Positions 3,361-48,078 of a stretch of DNA of 64,000 nucleotides are shown in pieces. The number at the start of each line of letters is the position of its first letter. Position 1 is the first letter of the stretch. The position numbers were made by a program, and so were the translations under genes. Source of the stretch: Minisyncoccia bacterium (lineage in GTDB: Bacteria; Patescibacteriota; Minisyncoccia; UBA6257; 2-01-FULL-56-20). The notes under the pieces were generated by a model. The model was not told the origin of the DNA. It did not search any database and saw only the letters and a list, made by a program, of their open reading frames with translations. The stretch is taken from positions 1,679 to 65,678 of the forward strand of contig JBEKRC010000005.1 of the NCBI GenBank assembly GCA_049997875.1, read 5' to 3'.

Positions 3361-3531
3361 ATTTATATCTTGAGGATTATCCAAATCGGTGCGTTCTCGC
3401 AATCATTAAATTTTTATTAAATGATTCTTGACACTTTCGCCTTGGACGCTACACTGATAGCAGCGAAAGAGTTCAGTCTTTTGTGGAGTTGAAATGCAGG
3501 AAGGCTCTACTGCGGGGCGCTCCCGGGAGCG

Positions 3532-4100: not shown

Positions 4101-5327
4101 ATGCCCACCCATCGCAAGAAGCCCAAGAAGAGGCCGCAAAAAAAAGGCGGCATGAGGAAGCGCGCCCTCAAACGAAGGGCGGCGAAAACGAAAGCCGCGA
4201 AACGCCCAAAAGGCAAAAAAAAGCCGCTTTCAAAACTGGAGAAAGCCGTCAAGGCCAACGCGGCGGAGATAGAGGAGCTCATTGAACGCGGCCGGCCGCG
4301 CGGATTCGTGACGGACAACGAGATTCTTTACTATTTCCCGAAGATAGAGGACAGCGTGGAGTTGCTTGATGAGATTTACGATCGGCTGGAAAAAGCCGGT
4401 ATTAAAGTGATTGAAACGAGCGCGCTCATAGATTTCTCGAAGGACGAAGGAGAAAAGAACATTGACGAGTCGCTCGCGTTTGAAGGCGATGTGCCGGACG
4501 CCGTACAGATGTATTTGAAGGAAATAGGGAAAACGCCGCTTCTATCAAAAGACGAAGAACGCGAGCTCGCGAAGCGCGCGGAGAAAGGAGACGAGGAAGC
4601 GCGGCAGAAATTGATGAAGGCCAATTTACGGTTGGTGGTCTCCATCGCAAAGCGTTACGTGAACCGCACGCCGCACTTGAGCATTCTTGATCTCATCCAA
4701 GAGGGGAATATCGGCCTCTCTCGCGCGGTGGAAAAATTCGACTATCGGCGCGGGTTCAAATTCTCTACGTACGCAACGTGGTGGATCCGCCAAGCGATCA
4801 CGCGCGCGCTTGCCGACCAATCGCGCACCGTCCGCATTCCGGTGCACATGGTGGAGACAATTTCCAAATACACGCAGGTGCGTCGGCAGCTGATTCAGGA
4901 ATTGGGCCGCGATCCACTGGCCGAAGAGATCGCCGCGGAGATGGGAATAGACGTGGACAGGGTGCGCCACATCCAGAAGATTTCGCAGGAGGTGCTTTCC
5001 ATTGAGACGCCGATCGGCGACGAGGAGGACTCCACGCTTTCCGATTTCATTCCCGACGAGCGGAACGCGACGCCCTCGCAGCTTACGGCGCGCGCGATGC
5101 TCCGCGACCTCATCCGTGAGATCATGGTGGACCTCACCGAACGCGAACAGCAGATTTTAAAGATGCGGTTCGGCCTTGATGATGGCATCAGCCACACGCT
5201 TGAGGAAGTGGGGAGGGCCTTCGGCGTCACGCGCGAGCGCATCCGGCAGATTGAAGCGAAGGCGCTGGAGAAGATCCGCGAGCACGGCAAAGCGCCGGCG
5301 CTGGAGGGCTTTGAGAGCCTCACCTGA
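4101..5327 (+). CDS. rpoD: RNA polymerase sigma-70 factor RpoD with a Lys-rich N-terminal extension
   Basis: Region 1.2/2 ([15 protein letters not shown]...[11 protein letters not shown]...IQEGNIGL...[18 protein letters not shown]) and region 4 ([24 protein letters not shown]). Confidence 0.9.
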
Positions 5328-5479
5328 TCTTTTGTCCTGACCCGCTTCGGACTCGAGAAATGTAATTCGCTCACAACGAAAATGTGCCACCCTCTCGCCT
5401 TCGGCGGGGGTCCCGGCACATTTTCTGCTCGCTCAAACATTTCTTTCTCGTCCTTCGCTAGGTTGCGGACAAAAGATCA
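5325..5479. ncRNA. structured RNA-like element, copy A: core GAAAATGTGCC-ACCCTCTCGCC-UUCG-GCGGGGGTCC-GGCACATTTTC enclosed by a 13-bp long-range helix
   Basis: Perfect 13-bp inverted repeat tgatcttttgtcc (5325-5337) / ggacaaaagatca (5467-5479). The inner 11-bp stem has A/T tracts on both sides and encloses a UUCG-tetraloop hairpin. The same core recurs at 24773-24820 with compensatory g/c swaps. It may also act as the rpoD terminator. Confidence 0.4.
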
Positions 5480-5498
5480 GGTTCGGCCCTTGCTGAAT

Positions 5499-5533
5499 CA
5501 TTTAATAATTTTTTAATGTCCCGCGAGTATAAT
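5499..5533 (+). promoter_or_regulatory. AT-rich promoter motif TTTAATAATTTTTTAATG plus gagTATAAT; near-leaderless for the 5541 gene
   Basis: Motif at 5499-5518 and TATAAT at 5528-5533. The ATG follows 7 nt later. The motif recurs upstream of accessory genes across the window. Confidence 0.5.
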
Positions 5534-5540
5534 ATTCGTA

Positions 5541-6071
5541 ATGGACATTATAGGGATCTTGAATTATCTCGGCATAACGCACGACAGGGCGCTTCCTTTC
5601 GCCATACTTATAGTGGCGATGATTTATATTAGCTATGCTTTTACCGCGCCGATAAAACGATCTGTCTCAAAAATATCCAACGCGATATTGGAGATACAGA
5701 CGATATTTCACCAGGATGGCGTGGAATTGAAATGTCATCTTGCAGAAGGAACAGGCAGCCCGCTACAGCCCACTCATTATGGGAAACAGCTCATTGTGGA
5801 GAGCGGCTTGGAAACCATCCTGAATGATAAGAAGGATTTTTTGAGGACGGTGCTGGCCAAGAAACTTCCGGAGAACTATACAGAGTACGATGTGCAGGAA
5901 AAGGCCCGCGAGCTTTTGATTGGGTTGAAAAGAGATCAGTTGATGAATCCCGTCAAAACATACGCGTACGAAAATGGAAAAGATATAGATATTATTTTGC
6001 GGGTTGGAGGTCTGTGGCTGAGGGATGATTTTATCGGGCAGGAAAGAAAGATAGTGCCCGAAAAAGGGTAG
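5541..6071 (+). CDS. hypothetical protein (low-GC)
   Basis: 176-aa ORF with an N-terminal hydrophobic segment. No recognisable domain. Confidence 0.45.
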   Translation: MDIIGILNYLGITHDRALPFAILIVAMIYISYAFTAPIKRSVSKISNAILEIQTIFHQDGVELKCHLAEGTGSPLQPTHYGKQLIVESGLETILNDKKDFLRTVLAKKLPENYTEYDVQEKARELLIGLKRDQLMNPVKTYAYENGKDIDIILRVGGLWLRDDFIGQERKIVPEKG

Positions 6072-6076
6072 GGTTG

Positions 6077-6110
6077 TTTTAATAATTTTTTAATGCACGG
6101 TGAGTATAAT
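6077..6110 (+). promoter_or_regulatory. AT-rich promoter motif TTTTAATAATTTTTTAATG plus gagTATAAT upstream of hicB
   Basis: Motif at 6077-6095 and TATAAT at 6105-6110. Confidence 0.5.
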
Positions 6111-6147
6111 ACTTTGCAAAGGTCGCAAAGCAAGTATTGTTATTTTT

Positions 6148-6399
6148 ATGGAGATGCCTACAATGGAATCTGTGAAGACAAAGTATAAATTTCCGTACAT
6201 CATTGAGCCGGACGAAGGCGGGTTTTATGCTACCTGTCCGGCCCTCAAAGGGTGTTCCACGCAGGGCGATACGTACGAAGAGGCACTCGCAAATATCAAA
6301 GAAGCAATCGAGGGCTATTTAGAGTGTCTTAAAAATGACGGAGAAGAAATTCCAACATCATCACATCATGGCTTGCCTACGGTAGAGATCGCCATCTAA
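6148..6399 (+). CDS. hicB: HicB-family antitoxin (UPF0150)
   Basis: YATCPALKGCSTQGDTYEEALANIKEAIEGYLE matches the HicB/UPF0150 signature. Start chosen at an internal Met of ORF 6100. Confidence 0.6.
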   Translation: MEMPTMESVKTKYKFPYIIEPDEGGFYATCPALKGCSTQGDTYEEALANIKEAIEGYLECLKNDGEEIPTSSHHGLPTVEIAI

Positions 6400-6402
6400 T
6401 CT

Positions 6403-6609
6403 ATGCCAAAACTTCCACGCCTCACCGCACGACAAGTAGCGGCTCGGCTAGAAGCGTGCAAGTTTTCGCTTTCACATCAGCGCGGGAGCCATAGATTTTA
6501 TCGTAATGCCGTCGGAAGATTGGTGACGGTCCCATTCCATGGCTCGCGCATCATCTGCCCCAAAACCCTGAAAGACATCATGCGCCAGGCGGGGATTGCG
6601 GAGTGGTGA
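6403..6609 (+). CDS. hicA: HicA-family mRNA interferase toxin
   Basis: 68 aa. LTARQVAARLEACKFSLSHQRGSHRFY...VTVPFHG...KDIMRQAGI is the YcfA/HicA pattern. Lies 4 nt after hicB. Confidence 0.7.
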   Translation: MPKLPRLTARQVAARLEACKFSLSHQRGSHRFYRNAVGRLVTVPFHGSRIICPKTLKDIMRQAGIAEW

Positions 6610-6650
6610 CGCGTTGCAATTCAGCCGGTTTTATTTTAACTTTGAGATAC

Positions 6651-8396
6651 ATGGATTCGGCAGAAATTCGCAGGAGATTTCTAAAGTTTTTTGAGGAACG
6701 CGGGCACGCGATCGTGCCTTCTTCATCTTTGATTCCCGATGATCCGTCGGTGTTGCTCACAACTGCCGGCATGCAGCAGTTTAAGCAATACTACACAGGC
6801 GAGCTTGACGCGGTGAAAGATTTCGGGAGCAAGAACACGGCCTCCATCCAAAAGTCGTTCCGCACCTCCGACATTGATGAAATAGGCGACGAAACGCACA
6901 ACACGTTTTTTGAGATGCTCGGCAGTTTCAGTTTCGGCGGTTACTGGAAAAAGGAGGCGATCGCGTGGGCGCATGAGTTTCTGACAAACGAACTGGGGCT
7001 TTCCATCTCATACGTGGTTATTTTCAAAGGATCATCCCTGATACCAAAGGACGGAGAGTCGGAACGCATTTGGCACTCCCTCGGCGTCATGGATGTCAGA
7101 GAAGGGGGGATGGACGATGTGTTTTGGGGGCCCACCGGAACATCCGGTCCTTGCGGACCGACGACCGATATTTACTGCAAAGCCGGCGACGGAAGAGAAG
7201 TGGAAAACTGGAGCATCGTTTTCAACGAGTTCTTTTGTAGCGGTTCGCGCGAGGAATTGCGCGCGGGCAAGGCGGAGCTTACGCCGCTCAAAACACGGGG
7301 CATTGATACCGGCATGGGCTTGGAGCGGCTCGCCATGGTTGCGCAGAAGAAGGGAAACATTTTTGAAACGGACCTTTTCGCGCCGCTCGCCCGCGCATTG
7401 CCGGAGAATCTCAGCACAAGAACGAAGCGCATCGCGGTTGATCATGGGCGGGCAATGGCATTTTTGATCTCTGACGGCGTCCGTCCTTCTAATAAAGAGT
7501 CGGGATATATCTTGCGCCGCCTCATGCGTCGCACTATGGTGCACGAACATCTTTCGGGCACCCCCTTCATGGAAAATATTCTTAAAGAAGTTTGCAAACA
7601 TTACCGCGCTTACTATTCAGAACTGAATGTCGATCTTGTGACAGGGGAGTTTAATAAAGAAAAAGAACGGTTTCAGAAGACACTCGTTGCCGGCCTAAAG
7701 GAATTAAAGAAAATCCCGATCATTGATACTACAAGCGCCTTCCGGCTTTACGAGACATATGGCTTGCCCTACGAGATTATTACGGAGTTAGGCGGCACCA
7801 TAGATGACGGATTGACGCGCGAAGCATTTAATGCCGAGTTCAAAAAACATCAGGAACTCTCCCGCGCCGGAGCCACGAAGAAATTCGGCGGGCACGGGTT
7901 GGTTTTGGACACGGGCGAGCTTAAAGCGGGGAGCGAAGAAGAAATGCAAAAGGTGCTGCGCTTGCACACGGCGACGCACTTGCTGCAGCAGGCGCTCCGG
8001 GAGGTACTCGGGCCCGACGTGCATCAGATGGGATCGGATATCACGCCCGAGCGCACGCGCTTTGACTTTTCCTTCCCGCGCAAAATGACGCCTGAAGAGA
8101 TCAAAAAAGCAGAGGAGATTGTGAATCAAAAGATAGGAGAAAATCTGCTGGTGGGTTTCAGGGAAATGCCGAAAAGCGAGGCGGAAAAACTGGGCGCACT
8201 CCACTTCTTCAAAGAGAAATATCCCGAAAAGGTGAAAGTGTATTACGTGGGCAGCGACCTCGCGCACGCGTGGAGCAAGGAGTTCTGCGGCGGGCCGCAC
8301 GTTGCGCACACGGGGGAGATTGGCCATTTCAGAATTGCGAAGGAAGAAGCGGTGGGCTCGGGCATCCGGCGCATCCGCGGGATGTTGGATGATTGA
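6651..8396 (+). CDS. alaS: alanyl-tRNA synthetase, short form lacking the C-Ala domain
   Basis: N-terminus RRRFLKFFEERGHAIVPSSSLIP and catalytic core present. Editing-domain metal motifs HTATHLL...CGGPHV are present. Only 581 aa. Confidence 0.8.
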   Translation: MDSAEIRRRFLKFFEERGHAIVPSSSLIPDDPSVLLTTAGMQQFKQYYTGELDAVKDFGSKNTASIQKSFRTSDIDEIGDETHNTFFEMLGSFSFGGYWKKEAIAWAHEFLTNELGLSISYVVIFKGSSLIPKDGESERIWHSLGVMDVREGGMDDVFWGPTGTSGPCGPTTDIYCKAGDGREVENWSIVFNEFFCSGSREELRAGKAELTPLKTRGIDTGMGLERLAMVAQKKGNIFETDLFAPLARALPENLSTRTKRIAVDHGRAMAFLISDGVRPSNKESGYILRRLMRRTMVHEHLSGTPFMENILKEVCKHYRAYYSELNVDLVTGEFNKEKERFQKTLVAGLKELKKIPIIDTTSAFRLYETYGLPYEIITELGGTIDDGLTREAFNAEFKKHQELSRAGATKKFGGHGLVLDTGELKAGSEEEMQKVLRLHTATHLLQQALREVLGPDVHQMGSDITPERTRFDFSFPRKMTPEEIKKAEEIVNQKIGENLLVGFREMPKSEAEKLGALHFFKEKYPEKVKVYYVGSDLAHAWSKEFCGGPHVAHTGEIGHFRIAKEEAVGSGIRRIRGMLDD

Positions 8397-25751: not shown

Positions 25752-25873
25752 ACCGCGCAAACATTGTAGCGAAGCGACATTAAATAATTCTTAAAAGAAG
25801 TTTGACAAAGTGTTTGAGTCGCTTATACTTTACAATAAGAATGTCGAGTCAGATCCGGTCTGCGTTCGGATTC

Positions 25874-26844: not shown

Positions 26845-26846
26845 TG

Positions 26847-26917
26847 TCGGGCCGCCGGGAATTGAACCCGGTCTAAACGCACCCCATGCGCTTGTACTAC
26901 CGGTATACTACGGCCCG
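26847..26917 (-). tRNA. tRNA-Pro (anticodon GGG)
   Basis: Hand-folded 71-nt cloverleaf. Acceptor CGGGCCG/CGGCCCG, U8 A9, D-arm GTAT-ACCGGTA-GTAC, anticodon arm AGCGC-ATGGGGT-GCGTT, variable TAGA, T-arm CCGGG-TTCAATT-CCCGG, discriminator A. CCA is not encoded. Confidence 0.6.
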
Positions 26918-34168: not shown

Positions 34169-34318
34169 AGATTATCTTGAGCGTGGCGAGGGAACTGGCC
34201 CAATGACCCACCGACAACCCCCGGCAATGCGCAATGGCGCGGCGACGAAAAGGTGTCACATCCAGCCCGCAAGGGAAAGATAAAGGTCGCAACGCTTTTC
34301 TTTCGGGAGGGGCGTTTT
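34169..34318 (+). promoter_or_regulatory. SAM-I (S-box) riboswitch with terminator-type expression platform, upstream of metK
   Basis: UUAUCUUGAGCGUGGCGAGGGAACUGGCCCAAUGACCCACCGACAACC...AAAAGGUGUCACAUCCAGC...AAGAUAA matches the S-box core (GAGGGA, UGGCCC, AUGA, GCAACC-like, AAGGUGC..AUCC.GC) and has a complementary P1 strand. A hairpin plus U-run follows at 34290-34318. An extended -10 TGcTATACT lies at 34142-34150. Confidence 0.6.
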
Positions 34319-38890: not shown

Positions 38891-38913
38891 TTTCTTTTAA
38901 TAATTTTTTAATG
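38891..38913 (+). promoter_or_regulatory. AT-rich promoter motif TTTCTTTTAATAATTTTTTAATG upstream of xseA
   Basis: Exact motif copy. Confidence 0.45.
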
Positions 38914-41094: not shown

Positions 41095-41382
41095 TTAACG
41101 GTCAACAAGCGCGATCTGCTTATTGAACACGTGCGCGATCCTGTACAGGGTTGCGAGAGATACGGGGTGTTTTCCAGATTCTATCCGCGCAACGACTGAT
41201 TGTGGCATAGATGCTTTCGCCGCCACTTGTTTCTGCGTCATGTTTTTCTTTTGCCGAAGCACCTTTATCTGATAGGCAAGGCGGAGGCGATTCACTTCTT
41301 CGGTGAACCCCTTTCTGAAGGCGGGGTTTTTAAGTTCTTCTTTTAGAACTTTCTCAAAGGGAATAAATTTCAGTTTTTCCAT
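41095..41382 (-). CDS. HTH XRE-family antitoxin (HigA-like)
   Basis: KNMTQKQVAAKASMPQSVVARIESGKHPVSLATLYRIAHVF is a helix-turn-helix. Overlaps the upstream toxin gene by 13 nt. Confidence 0.65.
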   Translation of the reverse strand: MEKLKFIPFEKVLKEELKNPAFRKGFTEEVNRLRLAYQIKVLRQKKNMTQKQVAAKASMPQSVVARIESGKHPVSLATLYRIAHVFNKQIALVDR

Positions 41383-41714
41383 GGCAGCTGTTTGAATGTT
41401 TTATATATTGCTTCCGCTTTTCTTATGATGCGGAGCGGTGTCTTTTGGGATTGTTTTTTGAACAAGGAGACAAAATAGATTGCCTCGCCGCTTTTGAAGA
41501 AAATCAGGCGATAGCGATGAACGATGAGTTCCTGAATGCCGCCACGGAGGGTTTTTATCGTAAGCGCCCCCACTTCTCCTTCTCGCAATAGTGTGAGATG
41601 CGCATAGATTTTGTCCTTCTCGTGCACGGGGAGGTCGGATAGTGCCCTGTAGAAATCATGAAGGAAATGAAGGGTGGTCATCAAGCGCCCTTCTCCCGGA
41701 TAGGAGTATAGCAA
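41370..41714 (-). CDS. RelE/ParE-superfamily toxin (HigB / phage Gp49-like); alternative start at Met12
   Basis: GIQELIVHRYRLIFFKSGEAIYFVSLFKKQSQKTP is the Gp49/HigB-like pattern. Toxin-first gene order with the XRE antitoxin. Confidence 0.6.
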   Translation of the reverse strand: MLYSYPGEGRLMTTLHFLHDFYRALSDLPVHEKDKIYAHLTLLREGEVGALTIKTLRGGIQELIVHRYRLIFFKSGEAIYFVSLFKKQSQKTPLRIIRKAEAIYKTFKQLPWKN

Positions 41715-41819: not shown

Positions 41820-42401
41820 TTAAACCGCCTTCACCGTGAGCTCGTTGCGATAGGGCTCAAGGAGCTCAAGCCGGCCATCGGGCGCGATCCATTCCTTTTC
41901 CCTGCCCGGCGGAAGGATGGCGGGCATCCGGTCGTGGATGGGGGACATGGTCTTGTTCGCGGGCACGGTGATGATGGAGAAGAACGGCCGCATGGCGTCG
42001 GAAAGCGTTTTGGTCCTCCATTCGTAGATCCCTGCGAAGGCCATCGGGCGGTGTTCCAGCGTGAAGCGGTACTTCTCTCTCGCGCCGCCGGTCCTCTTCC
42101 ACTCGTAGAAGCCGTCCGCAAGGACAATGCAGCGATGGTTCTCCACGGCCTTGCGGAAGTAGGGCTTGCCGAGGATGCTTTCGGCCCTGATATTGATGAG
42201 CTCCTTCTTTCTGCCCTTGACCTCGGTGGGATAGCCCCAATGGCCGAGGATTATTTGGTTCGGCTCGCTCGCGAGCACGACGGGCAGGTTTTCGCTCGGG
42301 CGGGCGTCGTCCGTCACGAGATACGCCTCGTGGGGAGGGAGGACGCCGAAGTATTCGGCCAGATTCTTCACGGGGGTGGTGATGGCGTAGCGGCCGCACA
42401 T
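41820..42401 (-). CDS. yedK: SOS-response-associated peptidase (SRAP/YedK, abasic-site crosslinking protein)
   Basis: Starts MCGRYA, with the invariant Cys2. DUF159 pattern throughout. Confidence 0.8.
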   Translation of the reverse strand: MCGRYAITTPVKNLAEYFGVLPPHEAYLVTDDARPSENLPVVLASEPNQIILGHWGYPTEVKGRKKELINIRAESILGKPYFRKAVENHRCIVLADGFYEWKRTGGAREKYRFTLEHRPMAFAGIYEWRTKTLSDAMRPFFSIITVPANKTMSPIHDRMPAILPPGREKEWIAPDGRLELLEPYRNELTVKAV

Positions 42402-42676
42402 GAGGTAACTATAGCGCTCGCCATCAATTTCGCCATTTTCCTGCGCTCCTCTCTGACGTCCATGCACCAGGCGTGGCCTCTCACGGTGATCACAAGTTCA
42501 AGGAATTCGGGGAGGTTTTTCTTGAGAGTTTTGTGGGGAGATTTTTGGTAGAGGGCGAGCTTTTTCTTGGCGCGGTAGTATTCGTCGGGAGACATAGGGT
42601 GATCTTTGATCGGGAGGGGAGGGTGAGTCAAGGGGGTAAGGCCCCAATTGAACATTAAGGAGGAAAGAGGTAGGGT

Positions 42677-42706
42677 TTTAATAAAGATTTAATGATTTTT
42701 TAATCT
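42677..42706 (+). promoter_or_regulatory. AT-rich promoter motif variant TTTTAATAAAGATTTAATGATTTTTTAATC upstream of the NucS-like gene
   Basis: Shares the TTTAATAAAGATTTAATGA variant with the copy at 48041. Confidence 0.4.
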
Positions 42707-42710
42707 TTCC

Positions 42711-43700
42711 ATGGAAAAGGTGGGGCAGCCTATGAACCATTCTTTGTTTGTGCTTACCGCCAGTAATCCTGAAGCGTATCAGCACTATATCGATACGATT
42801 GAGCGTGGCTTTCCTATTAACGATATTAAGGAGTTTCTGAGTGAAGATCAGTATATTGCCCTAAGGAATCTTTGCGGGGAAGAGCATCTTAAGGCTTGGG
42901 GTGCTACCCCGGGGAAGGGTAATATTGCCACTTGGAACAAGATGAATATCGGCGACCCGATCCTTATTTATAGACAAGGTAATTTTGAATATTACGCTTT
43001 TATTGCATTCAAGTTGCATAATGTTGAAATAGCAAAAAAGTTATGGCGGACGAACATAAAGGGAGAAACATGGGAATATGTCTACTTTTTAGATAAGCTG
43101 ACAGAAATTTCGGTTCCGGTGAAAATATTTAACGAAAGCATTGGTTATAAAGACAACTTTACGCCACAGGGTTTTAGTTCTGTTGATAAGAAGAAAGTGG
43201 ATTATTTGAAGGAGAAATTTGGATCGATTGAATCATTTCTTAATTATCTGGCAGAAGGGAAATGGATAGAGAGGGAAACCGCATATCCAAGGGAGGTTAA
43301 GGAGACCATTATTCAAGAAAGAGTTTCTCGACAGCTTGGACGCACCTCTTTACTTGAAGCGAACCTCGAAAATTATTTAGCGGATCGTGTTGCCCAGATT
43401 GAACCCGGTTTGAAATTAATTGGTCGACAGTTGGATACAAAAGAAGTCGGGCGGTTGGATCTGCTTTGTGAAGATAAGGATAAAAATTTGGTGGTCGTTG
43501 AATTGAAGCGGGGAACCGCAGGTTCATCAATTATTGATCAGATTCAGCGATACATGGGTTGGATGATCGCTCATAAGGCTCAGCCGAATCAAAAGGTGAG
43601 AGGCATTGTTATTGTGGCGTCCAAAGATACTGCGCTTGAATATGCGGTCAAAGCTAACCCGATGGTGCAGATAAAGACGTTTAATATCAGCGTGCAATAA
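42711..43700 (+). CDS. NucS/EndoMS-like PD-(D/E)xK nuclease (DUF91) with a non-NucS N-terminal domain, possibly PUA/EVE-like; candidate modification-dependent or defense nuclease
   Basis: C-terminus IEPGLKLIGRQLDTKEVGRLDLLCEDKDKNLVVVELKRGTAGSSIIDQIQRYMGWM...KVRGIVIVAS matches the NucS C-terminal nuclease (IEPGFK...GIVDVLGRDSDGNIVVLELKRRRA...KVRGILVAPS). The N-terminal 190 aa (W..N.GDPILIYRQGN..YYAFIAF) differs from the NucS N-domain. GC is about 38%. Confidence 0.6.
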   Translation: MEKVGQPMNHSLFVLTASNPEAYQHYIDTIERGFPINDIKEFLSEDQYIALRNLCGEEHLKAWGATPGKGNIATWNKMNIGDPILIYRQGNFEYYAFIAFKLHNVEIAKKLWRTNIKGETWEYVYFLDKLTEISVPVKIFNESIGYKDNFTPQGFSSVDKKKVDYLKEKFGSIESFLNYLAEGKWIERETAYPREVKETIIQERVSRQLGRTSLLEANLENYLADRVAQIEPGLKLIGRQLDTKEVGRLDLLCEDKDKNLVVVELKRGTAGSSIIDQIQRYMGWMIAHKAQPNQKVRGIVIVASKDTALEYAVKANPMVQIKTFNISVQ

Positions 43701-43760
43701 GTTTCAGTAAGTGAAGCGTTAGGATGGTATTGTGAGTAAATAAAACCGTAGAAAGATAAG

Positions 43761-44081
43761 ATGATTCATAATAAAAATATTTCTTGGTTGCCTCTAACGA
43801 GTTTCATCTGTCTACTTAGTCTTGTGTTTAGTGTCGGCACAATAATGAACCCTTATATTGGCATTTTCTTTGGTGCGTCGTTTACTATATTAGGCGCCGC
43901 AACAGCAGTTTTCCCTAAAGAGATAGCAGAACTTGGAAGAATGTGGTCGCAAAATATCGAAAGAGAGACACATATTTTCCTTATTGCATTTTCTGTTGCC
44001 TGTGCATTAATATTCTTTTGGGCGCGGTATATCGAAGGCTGGAGAATAAAGATCTATAACATTAATTATTCAAATGAATAA
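43761..44081 (+). CDS. small membrane protein (2-3 TM)
   Basis: 106 aa, very AT-rich. Overlaps the next ORF by 8 nt. Confidence 0.4.
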   Translation: MIHNKNISWLPLTSFICLLSLVFSVGTIMNPYIGIFFGASFTILGAATAVFPKEIAELGRMWSQNIERETHIFLIAFSVACALIFFWARYIEGWRIKIYNINYSNE

Positions 44082-44757
44082 ATATTTAAAAGCAATCATT
44101 CAGGGATTATTTATATTAGGGATTGCTGCATTTGCGATATGGTTTCTCAATCTTTTTATTCCAAAGAACCAAGGTGCAGATGTAGCTAACCGAGTTGCTG
44201 ATCAAGTGAAGCAAATTATCTTAAAAAGGCCGACATGTGCTGGAACGTCCGCAGAATTTGAGCAGTTGAAAGAGCAGGGCGGTTATATCCCGCTTCTGCA
44301 GAGTTCAACTGGCATGTATGGAATAGCAGGCGGCGATTTCGTGAATGAGAAACAAGTTACCGTAAATCGTACAGGGAGTGGTTCAGAGGTTGCTTGTGGA
44401 TATTTATATATCAATGCTGGCGTGGGGAAGAGAGCGCTAGATAATGAAGATGTCTACATAGTTCCGGGGGGATTCGGCGGACATCTACAATCTAGCGCCG
44501 CGATTATTAATCAAATCGTAAATTCGAGTACGGAAATGATTTTTTCCTTGGATAACATACAATACCGCAGCAATAAAAACATGTATACTGCAAACTGGGC
44601 TGCGTTACTAAACGTGTCAAACGAAATTAATTTTGAAATTGCATTGAACACCACTGACCCAAGGGGTTTCATTAATGAGGTCGGAATTGCATACAAATGT
44701 TGGAATCCTCAAACTGGCGATGTAACGACGGACTGTCGCTTAAGTGCTCAGCAATAG
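44074..44757 (+). CDS. N-terminally anchored or secreted protein
   Basis: 227 aa. An N-terminal hydrophobic helix is followed by a Cys-containing domain. Confidence 0.4.
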   Translation: MNKYLKAIIQGLFILGIAAFAIWFLNLFIPKNQGADVANRVADQVKQIILKRPTCAGTSAEFEQLKEQGGYIPLLQSSTGMYGIAGGDFVNEKQVTVNRTGSGSEVACGYLYINAGVGKRALDNEDVYIVPGGFGGHLQSSAAIINQIVNSSTEMIFSLDNIQYRSNKNMYTANWAALLNVSNEINFEIALNTTDPRGFINEVGIAYKCWNPQTGDVTTDCRLSAQQ

Positions 44758-44777
44758 CATATTAAAAGATCTCGAGA

Positions 44778-44803
44778 AATCGTGGCTTTTGCACTTTTAC
44801 GAG
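44778..44803 (+). promoter_or_regulatory. promoter-like TTGCAC-14-gagTATAAT upstream of the large structured RNA
   Basis: ttgcac at 44778-44783 and tataat at 44798-44803. The gagTATAAT -10 form is shared with the cassette promoters. Confidence 0.35.
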
Positions 44804-44811
44804 GAGAGTAT

Positions 44812-45165
44812 AATGAAGCTCGTAGTAGTTCTTTAAAAGCTGGCGGAGAAAACCATCGGGGCCTTATTTAGTTATTCAGAGTTTTTCCCACTCCCCCTCG
44901 TTAGGGCGTTAGAGAGCTAGTGCCTTAACCGGGGGGGGTTGTAGTCGGAACTCTCCGAACAAATTAATCTAACCAACCCTAATGGTTACCTTAACTACGG
45001 GGCAGACGGTGGTTATTTCGGGCATCTACCAGGTGCGCGGAACCAACTACCAGGTTACTCTCTCGCGCGGAGATCGCGTGCCACCCTACAACGGGAGGGC
45101 AGCGACCTTCGTTCTGGTCGTTTCGGCCAGACACGAACAGTAATGTTCTGCCGTTCTTCGCCAGC
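44812..45165 (+). ncRNA. roughly 350-nt structured non-coding RNA of unknown class
   Basis: 435-nt ORF-free interval between convergent genes. GC is higher than the flanking genes. Perfect 12-bp long-range helix taaaagctggcg (44824-44835) / cgccagctttta (45149-45160). Many internal hairpins (tcgga-actct-ccga, aacca-accctaa-tggtt, tctgg-tcgtttcgg-ccaga, cgcg-gagat-cgcg) and repeated CTACCAGG segments. No RNase P, tmRNA or 6S hallmark motifs were found. Confidence 0.5.
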
Positions 45166-45192
45166 TTTTAGAGAGATACTTTGATAAAAGAG

Positions 45193-46092
45193 TCAGCCGA
45201 TCGGACTATTTTTCGGAGCTTCAATTTTTAACGACAACTCAGTCATCGCGTAGTGAACAAATTGTTGTCCGATGCCAGTTAATTCATATTGTTCCTCTTC
45301 GTCGAATGCAGATTTGGCAGTATGCGTCCCTGAACTTTTTGGTGTTCTCCCTGTAGCTCTTGATACAATTATATTTCCCGCATAATCTCTATCTTTATGT
45401 TGTCGAATTATGGCACCAGTGCTTAAGTCGCGGAAAAGAAGCTTGAACAAATCTGCTTCTGGGGAATCTTCTCTAACGGGTTGTTTGCCTAGCTGTCTCC
45501 AAACTTCTCCTCTGGTTATTCCATTTTTGTTATAAATTACTCCTATAACTTTGAAATGAAGTTCAGAATAATTTTTGAGCCAATCGAGAAAGAGCTTTAT
45601 GACATCATCGCTCACTAGCGCGGTTGCCGCGGCATTAGAAAGAATATTTCTTATTAATTTCCTTTTCTCTTCACTTTCAGCTCCGGACCATTCCCGAAAT
45701 GCTTTTTTAACAATGGACTGATATTCCGGACTCTTCATTCGTTCTCCGATCTTTGCATCGTGCATATCAAGGCGAGCCATGATCTCTACGATGGTTTGTT
45801 CTTTTTCCCGCATTTCATCAAAGAGCATTCGTAGCCAATGTTTAAAGAAGGCATTCGCTCTTTCCTGATCATGACCTTCCCACGCGCTCGCGGCCGCAGA
45901 GAAGATTCCGCCTATGACGGGAATTGCCCCTCCTGCAATTTCCATACCTGCTTGCAAGACTTTCTTGCCGAGTTTTGGTTTGTGGTCGGAAGCAATCGTC
46001 GCAATCACTTTGCCACAAAACGGACAATTTTCGGATAAGTAAGGTATTTCCTTGCCGCATTCGCCACACTTTATTGGTTCCATGTTTTCCAT
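45193..46092 (-). CDS. hypothetical protein with N-terminal zinc-ribbon
   Basis: KCGECGKEIPYLSENCPFCGK at the N-terminus, then a roughly 270-aa soluble domain of unknown function. Convergent with the ncRNA. Confidence 0.5.
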   Translation of the reverse strand: MENMEPIKCGECGKEIPYLSENCPFCGKVIATIASDHKPKLGKKVLQAGMEIAGGAIPVIGGIFSAAASAWEGHDQERANAFFKHWLRMLFDEMREKEQTIVEIMARLDMHDAKIGERMKSPEYQSIVKKAFREWSGAESEEKRKLIRNILSNAAATALVSDDVIKLFLDWLKNYSELHFKVIGVIYNKNGITRGEVWRQLGKQPVREDSPEADLFKLLFRDLSTGAIIRQHKDRDYAGNIIVSRATGRTPKSSGTHTAKSAFDEEEQYELTGIGQQFVHYAMTELSLKIEAPKNSPIG

Positions 46093-46162
46093 CCTATACC
46101 CCCGTCGGGGTTCGTCAATCCAAACGATTTACAAAACCGTTCTGAGGTGATACCATCCGGCC

Positions 46163-46642
46163 ATGAGCACAAAGGAGCTTGTCGCGGAAATAGAGAAACG
46201 CTTTGAGATTATATTGCCCATATCAATCTTTTTTCCAGTTCTGATGGCCACGTATTTTGATATTGTTGGTGGACCGGACAAAGATTATCATACCGCGTTC
46301 ATATTTTTTGCCCTGCCGGCGCTCTATATCGCAAGCTATGTTATCTTCGAGCTTCGTAAAATTTTACCACCTATCCCGCCGTTGGCGCTTCAAGTATTGG
46401 ACTGGAGCCTGTTGCTGAACATTCTTTGTTTCGCTGCACCCGTCATATTCGTTGTCATGGCATATGCTCATGTGACGCTCTCGCGGTGGACTTATTTGGT
46501 TGATCTGTGGACTTTCATCGGCTCAGGGTGGGGAGTAGTTACTTTGCCGTTTGCCATTTTCCTTTTTGTTATCGCGAGTGAAGCGATTGCTATAGCAGCG
46601 AAAGTTATAGGTAAACAGTGGGCAAATAAAAAGATTTTCTAA
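46163..46642 (+). CDS. hypothetical membrane protein (4 TM)
   Basis: 159 aa, hydrophobic. Confidence 0.45.
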   Translation: MSTKELVAEIEKRFEIILPISIFFPVLMATYFDIVGGPDKDYHTAFIFFALPALYIASYVIFELRKILPPIPPLALQVLDWSLLLNILCFAAPVIFVVMAYAHVTLSRWTYLVDLWTFIGSGWGVVTLPFAIFLFVIASEAIAIAAKVIGKQWANKKIF

Positions 46643-46669
46643 TTAAAGACAGGCTTGGACATGGATTCG

Positions 46670-48040: not shown

Positions 48041-48078
48041 TTCTTTTAATAAAGATTTAATGACCGTTGTGCTATGGT
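48041..48078 (+). promoter_or_regulatory. AT-rich promoter motif variant TTCTTTTAATAAAGATTTAATG plus extended -10 TGcTATGGT
   Basis: Upstream of the 48097 gene pair. Confidence 0.4.

Follow-up and report, generated by a model that had tools for sequence, protein, structure and literature searches.

A low-GC patch in a Minisyncoccia (Patescibacteria; candidate phyla radiation [CPR]) chromosome most probably consists of at least four independent accessory modules, a reading to which we give a probability of about 0.7: the predicted restriction enzyme nuc329, the gene pair mem106-sec227, a structured mRNA encoding the small protein sm53, and the protein zn299. The patch, here called the island, was studied within the window, which is the whole stretch of 64,000 nucleotides that was analyzed (GenBank assembly GCA_049997875.1, contig JBEKRC010000005.1, positions 1,679 to 65,678 of the forward strand); all positions below are those of the window. 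Among its genes, nuc329 likely encodes a restriction endonuclease of the modification-dependent (type IV-like) kind that consists of one protein, an architecture for which structure prediction, fold search and domain swaps all argue. A preliminary description of this DNA had named four open reading frames (ORFs), those of nuc329, mem106, sec227 and zn299; all are present, and sm53 is added to them here.

nuc329, 42711-43700, plus strand: predicted modification-dependent (type IV) restriction endonuclease
Domains of nuc329: residues ~10-190, PUA-superfamily (YTH/EVE-like) reader; residues ~213-325, NucS-like PD-(D/E)xK nuclease
mem106, 43761-44081, plus strand: 106-aa membrane protein with three hydrophobic segments by hydropathy, first gene of its pair
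sec227, 44074-44757, plus strand: 227-aa membrane-anchored extracytoplasmic protein, overlapping mem106 by 8 nt
sm53, 44982-45143, plus strand: 53-aa coding ORF within the region 44812-45165
zn299, 45193-46092, minus strand: 299-aa convergent protein that starts with CxxC...CxxC
Parts of zn299: C4 zinc ribbon (residues 9-26), glycine-rich hydrophobic segment, helical region and winged-helix domain

The island genes at other loci

The preliminary description had proposed a single defense or RNA-guided module, made up of the nuclease, both membrane proteins, a structured RNA and the Zn-ribbon protein. The genes are indeed adjacent, uniformly low in GC and all unannotated, the terminator scan showed none separating the nuclease gene from the membrane pair, and the arrangement recurs on 18 metagenomic contigs, although these are identical throughout the region and represent copies of one genome. 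However, when the five other island proteins were sought by tblastn around nuclease relatives, at 57 loci other than the identical contigs and mostly within +/-8 kb, none was found at any of them, the loci of full-length relatives in L007-L014 included, and a covariance model (R1) built on the leader hairpin of the RNA found no copy of it there. Even two close homologs of nuc329 differ in context, P0003 and P0037 lying one beside tRNA modification and Mrr-like genes and the other beside tetratricopeptide repeat and isomerase genes. Conversely, the RNA unit recurs on contig L064 without the nuclease, zn299 and the mem106-sec227 pair each recur alone, and the RNA encodes a protein that appears to be under purifying selection. 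No reverse transcriptase, Cas protein or TnpB was found among the island ORFs with Pfam and PADLOC. Homologs of these genes are thus scattered with no shared neighborhood, which is an outcome that the preliminary description had itself named as refuting its module, and a single system is improbable in the extreme. Since the island does not amount to a new RNA-guided system, effort on it as one is unwarranted; the folded sm53 mRNA and the 2,400-member zn299 family are small, well-defined leads, each of which can be tested on its own.

The membrane pair provides an example of such independent recurrence. In L078-L080 and L081, a membrane ORF of 107-111 aa overlaps the start of a sec227 homolog (L078:3681-4687; L081:261-1308), and it is 32% identical to mem106 over 82 residues, with matching position and topology. 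Since a mem106-like ORF recurs with sec227 homologs, mem106-sec227 is therefore considered a module of its own, a conserved overlapping pair predicted to comprise an envelope protein and a small membrane partner. The pairs in L078-L081 adjoin a methyltransferase gene, or Peptidase_M78 and DUF4411 genes, and never the nuclease. The sec227 protein is anchored at its N terminus, and four of its cysteines are invariant (C55, C108, C209 and C221); among 1.84 billion proteins its family has 70 cluster representatives, and no family in Pfam, PADLOC, NCBIfam or PHROG matched it. The two proteins had been described as tiny and as membrane or secreted proteins. The second part of this description holds for both, whereas "tiny" does not suit the second, at 227 aa.

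The convergent gene zn299 had been described as coding for a protein with a C4 zinc ribbon. The ORF and its N-terminal CxxC...CxxC are as described, but the ribbon is a clade-specific addition within a family that also has a winged helix. With 60-70% identity between members from distant phyla, this family comprises more than 2,400 proteins. Searches of Pfam, PADLOC and NCBIfam assigned zn299 to no family and returned only weak zinc-ribbon and histone H1 matches, and BFVD gave no significant match. Relatives (L065-L070 and L073-L077) lie beside CBASS, ubiquitin-like, PemK, resolvase, Schlafen or ordinary genes; others are carried on viral contigs, or stand alone in other defense islands. By these comparisons the winged-helix protein zn299 stands alone and belongs to a widespread, mobile family; nucleic-acid binding is predicted for it. 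Its genomic company suggests a role in defense or in mobile elements, and zn299 is possibly an unrecognized single-gene protein of one or the other.

Domain architecture and distribution of nuc329

The assignment of a NucS-like PD-(D/E)xK domain to the C terminus of nuc329, made in the preliminary description, is borne out. Residues 216-305 match Pfam NucS_C (2e-12) with the D/E/K site intact, and NucS/EndoMS is the best match of the C-terminal domain in both sequence and structure. In the family profile, D250, E264, K266, Q277 and Y281 align to the catalytic and QxxxY residues reported for P. abyssi NucS by Ren et al. 2009, and all five are invariant or nearly so among 37 relatives. The AlphaFold2 (AF2) model of the protein has a predicted local distance difference test (pLDDT) score of 85.9. 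The true start is likely M8, at 42732, with GGTGG in front of it.

The N-terminal domain is of another kind. As had been proposed, it is of PUA/EVE type and unrelated to that of NucS: the fold search with the predicted structure matched the McrB N-domain and the EVE and YTH folds, not the NucS N-domain. No Pfam EVE, YTH or ASCH model matched this reader, and phrog_14240 was its only match in the libraries. Five aromatic residues (W63, W75, W112, W121 and Y123) show little or no variation in either alignment. Two proteins, P0064 and P0066, are 39-40% identical to nuc329 over the N-domain only, and the sources name such proteins HNH endonucleases. Among 43 N-domain relatives, HNH_2 was found in 11, HNH in 4, and AAA_5 and NucS_C in 1 each. 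These relatives span Bacillota, Bacteroidota, Cyanobacteria, Proteobacteria, Actinomycetota, CPR bacteria and archaea; plasmid-borne members are annotated as HNH or restriction endonucleases, and an Archaeoglobus provirus encodes a nuc329-type N-domain fused to an AAA ATPase. NucS_C domains, for their part, are joined elsewhere to EVE, Nmad3 and AlwI-type N-domains. One reader combined with interchangeable effectors defines the modification-dependent restriction enzymes, and nuc329 is therefore filed as an uncharacterized addition to that class. Fold search, structure prediction and domain swaps thus agree with the type IV architecture suggested earlier.

About 60 full-length homologs of nuc329 were found, of ~321 aa and with 50-69% identity. 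They are confined to CPR bacteria (Paceibacterota, Parcubacteria and Minisyncoccota) and DPANN archaea such as Aenigmatarchaeota. Full-length homologs from DPANN or uncultured archaea (L012, L013 and L014) are 50-53% identical to those of CPR bacteria (L007, L011 and the window). The distribution suggests, at the level of sequence, that nuc329 has been exchanged between these two small-celled, probably episymbiotic groups. No methyltransferase lies beside nuc329, the neighbors of which are an SRAP gene, a Gp49/HTH pair and the membrane-protein pair, and in L007 and L009 no DNA methyltransferase of a restriction-modification pair is adjacent to the homolog. In L007, from a member of the Paceibacterota, the homolog (6001-6966) follows a gene for a 281-aa ATP-cone/Mrr_cat-like protein (5103-5948), with PDDEXK_1 and uracil-DNA glycosylase (UDG) genes nearby; together these genes possibly make up a small cluster for restriction or DNA repair.

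We considered whether nuc329 could instead be a housekeeping DNA-repair enzyme, that is, a NucS/EndoMS variant that cleaves mismatched or branched DNA and in which the DNA-binding domain has been replaced. The identity of the best match of its C-terminal domain and the position of the gene between SRAP and DinB-type polymerase genes, both DNA-damage genes, are in keeping with such a role. However, the NCBIfam NucS equivalog model NF003270 scores only 58 bits against a cut-off of 216, residues 214-304 alone being matched, and the N-domain is a PUA/YTH/EVE reader, so that nuc329 does not have the standard NucS N-domain. The swapping of this reader among HNH, McrB-type and PD-(D/E)xK effectors, the patchy distribution over CPR and DPANN, and the foreign GC content also speak against it, and we regard a repair role as highly improbable.

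As a modification-dependent restriction enzyme, nuc329 would read incoming DNA through its YTH/EVE-like PUA domain, which would flip a modified base into an aromatic pocket formed by W63, W75, W112, W121 and Y123. The NucS-like PD-(D/E)xK domain (D250, E264 and K266), probably dimeric like NucS, would then cut the DNA nearby. Such an enzyme would need no methyltransferase partner, and the host would be spared because its own DNA is without the mark. With nuc329, a NucS-type effector and an unmodeled YTH/EVE-like reader would be added to the type IV architectures, and the protein could find use as a reagent to detect a modified base. CPR bacteria have tiny genomes and few recognized defense systems, so a credible stand-alone modification-dependent enzyme in this group is worth knowing.

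The sm53 gene and its folded mRNA

The region 44812-45165 had been described as a separately promoted, highly structured noncoding RNA (ncRNA) of roughly 350 nt. That it is structured is upheld by comparison with shuffled sequences, which gave z scores of -5.8 for the plus strand and -4.4 for the minus strand, and of -9.8 for the copy on contig L064. The other two parts of the description fared less well. A consensus sigma-70 scan found no promoter and no matching -35 element upstream of the unit, where only a TATAAT box is conserved, and the region contains an ORF, sm53. The homolog of sm53 encoded on L064 (P0242) is 89% identical (47 of 53 residues). Of the 25 nucleotide differences between the two ORFs, 16 are at the third codon position (binomial P = 0.0016), and the codon changes comprise 13 synonymous and 6 nonsynonymous ones, 4 of the latter at the protein ends. 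By these substitution patterns sm53 is under apparent purifying selection and is predicted to be translated. A conserved coding ORF in this region means that the transcript is to be read as a structured mRNA and not as a dedicated ncRNA.

The predicted protein is soluble and beta-rich, with a grand average of hydropathy (GRAVY) of -0.03 and a best 19-aa hydropathy window of 0.75, and has no membrane segment. Its closest family is Pfam YjzC (PF14168), matched below threshold by both copies (12.3-12.5 bits versus 25, E about 0.2). The L064 unit is flanked by unrelated genes, for a DUF3761 protein, a membrane protein and an HEPN-like protein, with neither the nuclease nor zn299, and its alignment to the window runs from the TATAAT box to just past 45184, with no similarity outside. 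Protein searches for sm53 returned a single other cluster, that of P0242; scans of IMG/VR and JGI metagenomes with leader, peptide and ends-only patterns revealed no true further unit, and R1, run on 345 kb of collected loci, found the window and L064 only. Two matches to the ends pattern, in L071 and L072, proved to be one sensor-kinase coding sequence matched by chance, and a 53-aa ORF that follows the sec227 homolog in L078 encodes an unrelated helical protein and was rejected as a counterpart of sm53. The elements of the unit are as follows.

TATAAT box, 44809-44814, plus strand: candidate -10 element of the sm53 transcript and left edge of the window-L064 similarity
Terminal helix, 5' strand, 44820-44850, plus strand: pairs with 45154-45184; inverted repeat I1
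Terminal helix, 3' strand, 45154-45184, plus strand: the L064 similarity stops here
Anti-start segment, AACCAU.GGGG, 44851-44861, plus strand: pairs with CCCU.AUGGUU (44977-44987) and continues the terminal helix
Leader hairpin, 44865-44972, plus strand: long and irregular, helices 3-5 of the consensus fold

The RNAalifold consensus of the two copies has 118 pairs, all of which form in both. Eleven of the 118 have changed on both sides, as opposed to at most 1 in controls in which the partners were slid by 1-3 columns. The terminal helix (helix 1), with 28 bp, joins the 5' and 3' ends of the transcript and includes 3 pairs with compensatory double changes; the leader hairpin has three such changes, one in helix 3 and two in helix 5; and a hairpin within the sm53 ORF stays paired through two synonymous changes. 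In separate minimum-free-energy folds of both copies, AACCAU (44851-44856) pairs with AUGGUU (44982-44987), the start codon region. This anti-start helix has one compensatory change, from G-C to A-U, and in each copy the sm53 AUG is paired with a probability of at least 0.9. The start codon has no Shine-Dalgarno sequence in front of it. The covariation evidence for this fold is suggestive. Taken together, the unit is probably a self-contained small-protein gene with an mRNA that is, on the folding model, translationally locked. The full-length transcript would be stable but locked, and reading it would need processing or melting of the terminal helix.

The preliminary description had left room for a known RNA of unusual type in this region. 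With Rfam 15 at gathering thresholds there was no match in the island, and the best match below threshold (E <= 10) was mir-324, with 22.7 versus 70 bits. RNase P, tmRNA, 6S RNA and riboswitch identities were rejected, as neither threshold gave any of them in the island and ARAGORN reported only a tRNA-Pro at 26846.

It could be argued that the region is, nonetheless, an ncRNA or a miniature inverted-repeat transposable element (MITE) with a fortuitous ORF. Inverted repeats of 27 nt surround a core of 303 nt, the fold z score is strong, the hairpin covaries, and sm53 matches no family above threshold. Yet the differences within the ORF pile up at codon position 3 while almost all residues are kept, the L064 similarity already begins at the TATAAT box, which lies beyond the left repeat, and the flanks show no target-site duplication, with one copy per sequence. 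Furthermore, the non-Watson-Crick pairs of the terminal helix, which are the mismatches of the repeats, are all G.U on the plus strand, which points to RNA pairing rather than DNA ends. We consider this explanation very unlikely.

Less remote, though still unlikely in our estimation, is a type I toxin-antitoxin-like unit, in which the locked mRNA would be activated by 3' or 5' processing, an unseen antisense RNA would exert control, and the protein would inhibit growth. The end helix, the buried AUG and the missing Shine-Dalgarno sequence, kept with compensatory changes in two copies, would suit such a unit, as would its autonomy in varying contexts, and similar locked-mRNA logic is documented for aapA1 (PMC5416894) and hok (PMC6733600). 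On the other hand, sm53 is not hydrophobic and has no membrane-spanning window, a sigma-70 scan revealed no promoter-like site on the minus strand within 44800-45190 (CPR promoters being poorly defined), and just two copies exist across all the collections searched. We also entertain, as a doubtful proposal, that the locked small-protein gene favored above (~370 nt, 44809-45184) is a new kind of self-contained, posttranscriptionally locked CPR gene for a soluble, beta-rich effector, a functional analog of type I toxin mRNAs that its end helix and buried AUG would hold silent until a nuclease (e.g., RNase III) or stress opens it, and that, separately, zn299 is the founder of an unrecognized and very widespread single-gene defense or mobile-element family.

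Counterpoints, genomic setting and known systems

Several points weigh against the reading of the island as independent modules headed by a modification-dependent nuclease. The gap between nuc329 and mem106 is 60 nt and the terminator scan found none between them, so that cotranscription of nuc329 with mem106-sec227 is possible. The co-occurrence result is bounded by the +/-8 kb covered and by the sensitivity of tblastn. The RNA structure comes from two sequences, and since the consensus was derived from both, the pair counts are inflated. Finally, the structure closest to the nuc329 N-domain is listed with 5-methylcytosine (m5C) DNA, yet PMC7641849 describes N6-methyladenine (m6A) DNA binding.

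The island stands out in composition, as first reported: GC is 0.34-0.47 over ~42650-46550 and 0.60-0.69 in the flanks on each side. Elsewhere in the window, 1-kb bins are mostly at 0.52-0.60, with several further low-GC patches. Its end had been placed near 46100, but it reaches ~46650 and takes in one more gene, mem159; positions ~42650-46650 are a compositionally foreign patch of the chromosome. By Pfam, the genes directly to the left (41095-41714 and 41820-42467, both on the minus strand) encode a Gp49-like/HTH (HigB-HigA-type) toxin-antitoxin pair, in another low-GC patch, and an SRAP peptidase, and a gene on the right side encodes a DinB-type polymerase. With SRAP on one side and a DinB-type polymerase on the other, the island is therefore situated between DNA-damage genes. 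The remaining features are listed here.

mem159, 46163-46642, plus strand: 159-aa membrane ORF, low in GC, at the right edge
AT-rich 20-nt motif TTTTAATAAAGATTTAATGA, 42676-42695, plus strand: upstream of nuc329
Exact copies of the 17-nt core: 42678-42694 and 48046-48062
Degenerate copies of the 17-nt core: 3404-3420 (minus), 5502-5518, 6079-6095, 25778-25794 (minus) and 38897-38913

No family in Pfam, PADLOC, NCBIfam or PHROG matched mem159, which tblastn of the collected loci detected on the identical contigs only. The AT-rich motif that had been noted at the start of the island is present there, and the 20-nt sequence TTTTAATAAAGATTTAATGA has an exact second copy at 48044-48063. Its 17-nt core, TTAATAAAGATTTAATG, has two exact copies, at 42678 and 48046, and five degenerate ones; searched as TTAATAAnnnTTTAATG, the core gave 7 matches in the window versus 0.14 expected. 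Around the copies there is no similarity beyond the motif itself. Downstream of each exact copy is a low-GC accessory gene, nuc329 in one case and a PBECR2-like gene in the other, and the motif may be a candidate promoter or operator common to accessory genes of this CPR genome. Scanned for sigma-70 and terminator sites, the island had no more of them than shuffled sequences. The sole Rfam and ARAGORN matches in the window are the tRNA-Pro(GGG), at 26846-26917 on the minus strand, and an S-adenosylmethionine (SAM) riboswitch, at 34169-34286 on the plus strand (51.7 bits), apparently upstream of the S-adenosylmethionine synthetase gene that the identical contigs carry.

Among known systems, the predicted sm53 fold most resembles type I toxin mRNAs such as hok and aapA1, in which long-range pairing of the 5' and 3' ends likewise accompanies an occluded translation start. 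However, type I toxins are hydrophobic peptides, whereas sm53 is soluble and beta-rich, with no antisense RNA evident.

For nuc329, the closest known systems are modification-dependent enzymes with PUA-superfamily readers: the EVE-HNH enzyme VcaM4I, the SRA-type enzymes MspJI and AspBHI, and fusions of YTH-like domains to PD-(D/E)xK nucleases (PMC7641849). Fusions of YTH-like domains to such nucleases or to McrB GTPases have already been described (PMC7641849; Bell, Wolf and Koonin 2020). Unlike those enzymes, nuc329 has a nuclease of the NucS/EndoMS subtype at its C terminus and a reader that falls outside the Pfam EVE, YTH and ASCH models. In McrB, the reader serves a GTP-driven motor that recruits McrC, whereas in nuc329 it is fused straight to the nuclease. 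NucS/EndoMS itself (PDB 2vld and 5gke) has the same C-terminal RecB-like PD-(D/E)xK fold and catalytic residues, but its N-terminal dimerization and DNA-binding domain is absent from nuc329, and the NCBIfam equivalog cut-offs are far from reached. END nucleases (PMC12191111) were ruled out as an identity for nuc329 because the END sensor is an inactive EndoIII. The PADLOC candidate single-gene system PDC-S02 resembles nuc329 in overall length and in the C-terminal position of the nuclease. Its hidden Markov model (HMM) matches residues 235-327 of nuc329 (E = 1.2e-20) at profile positions 210-302 of 308, and positions 1-209 are unmatched, so that the likeness is to the nuclease third alone of what is itself a candidate system.

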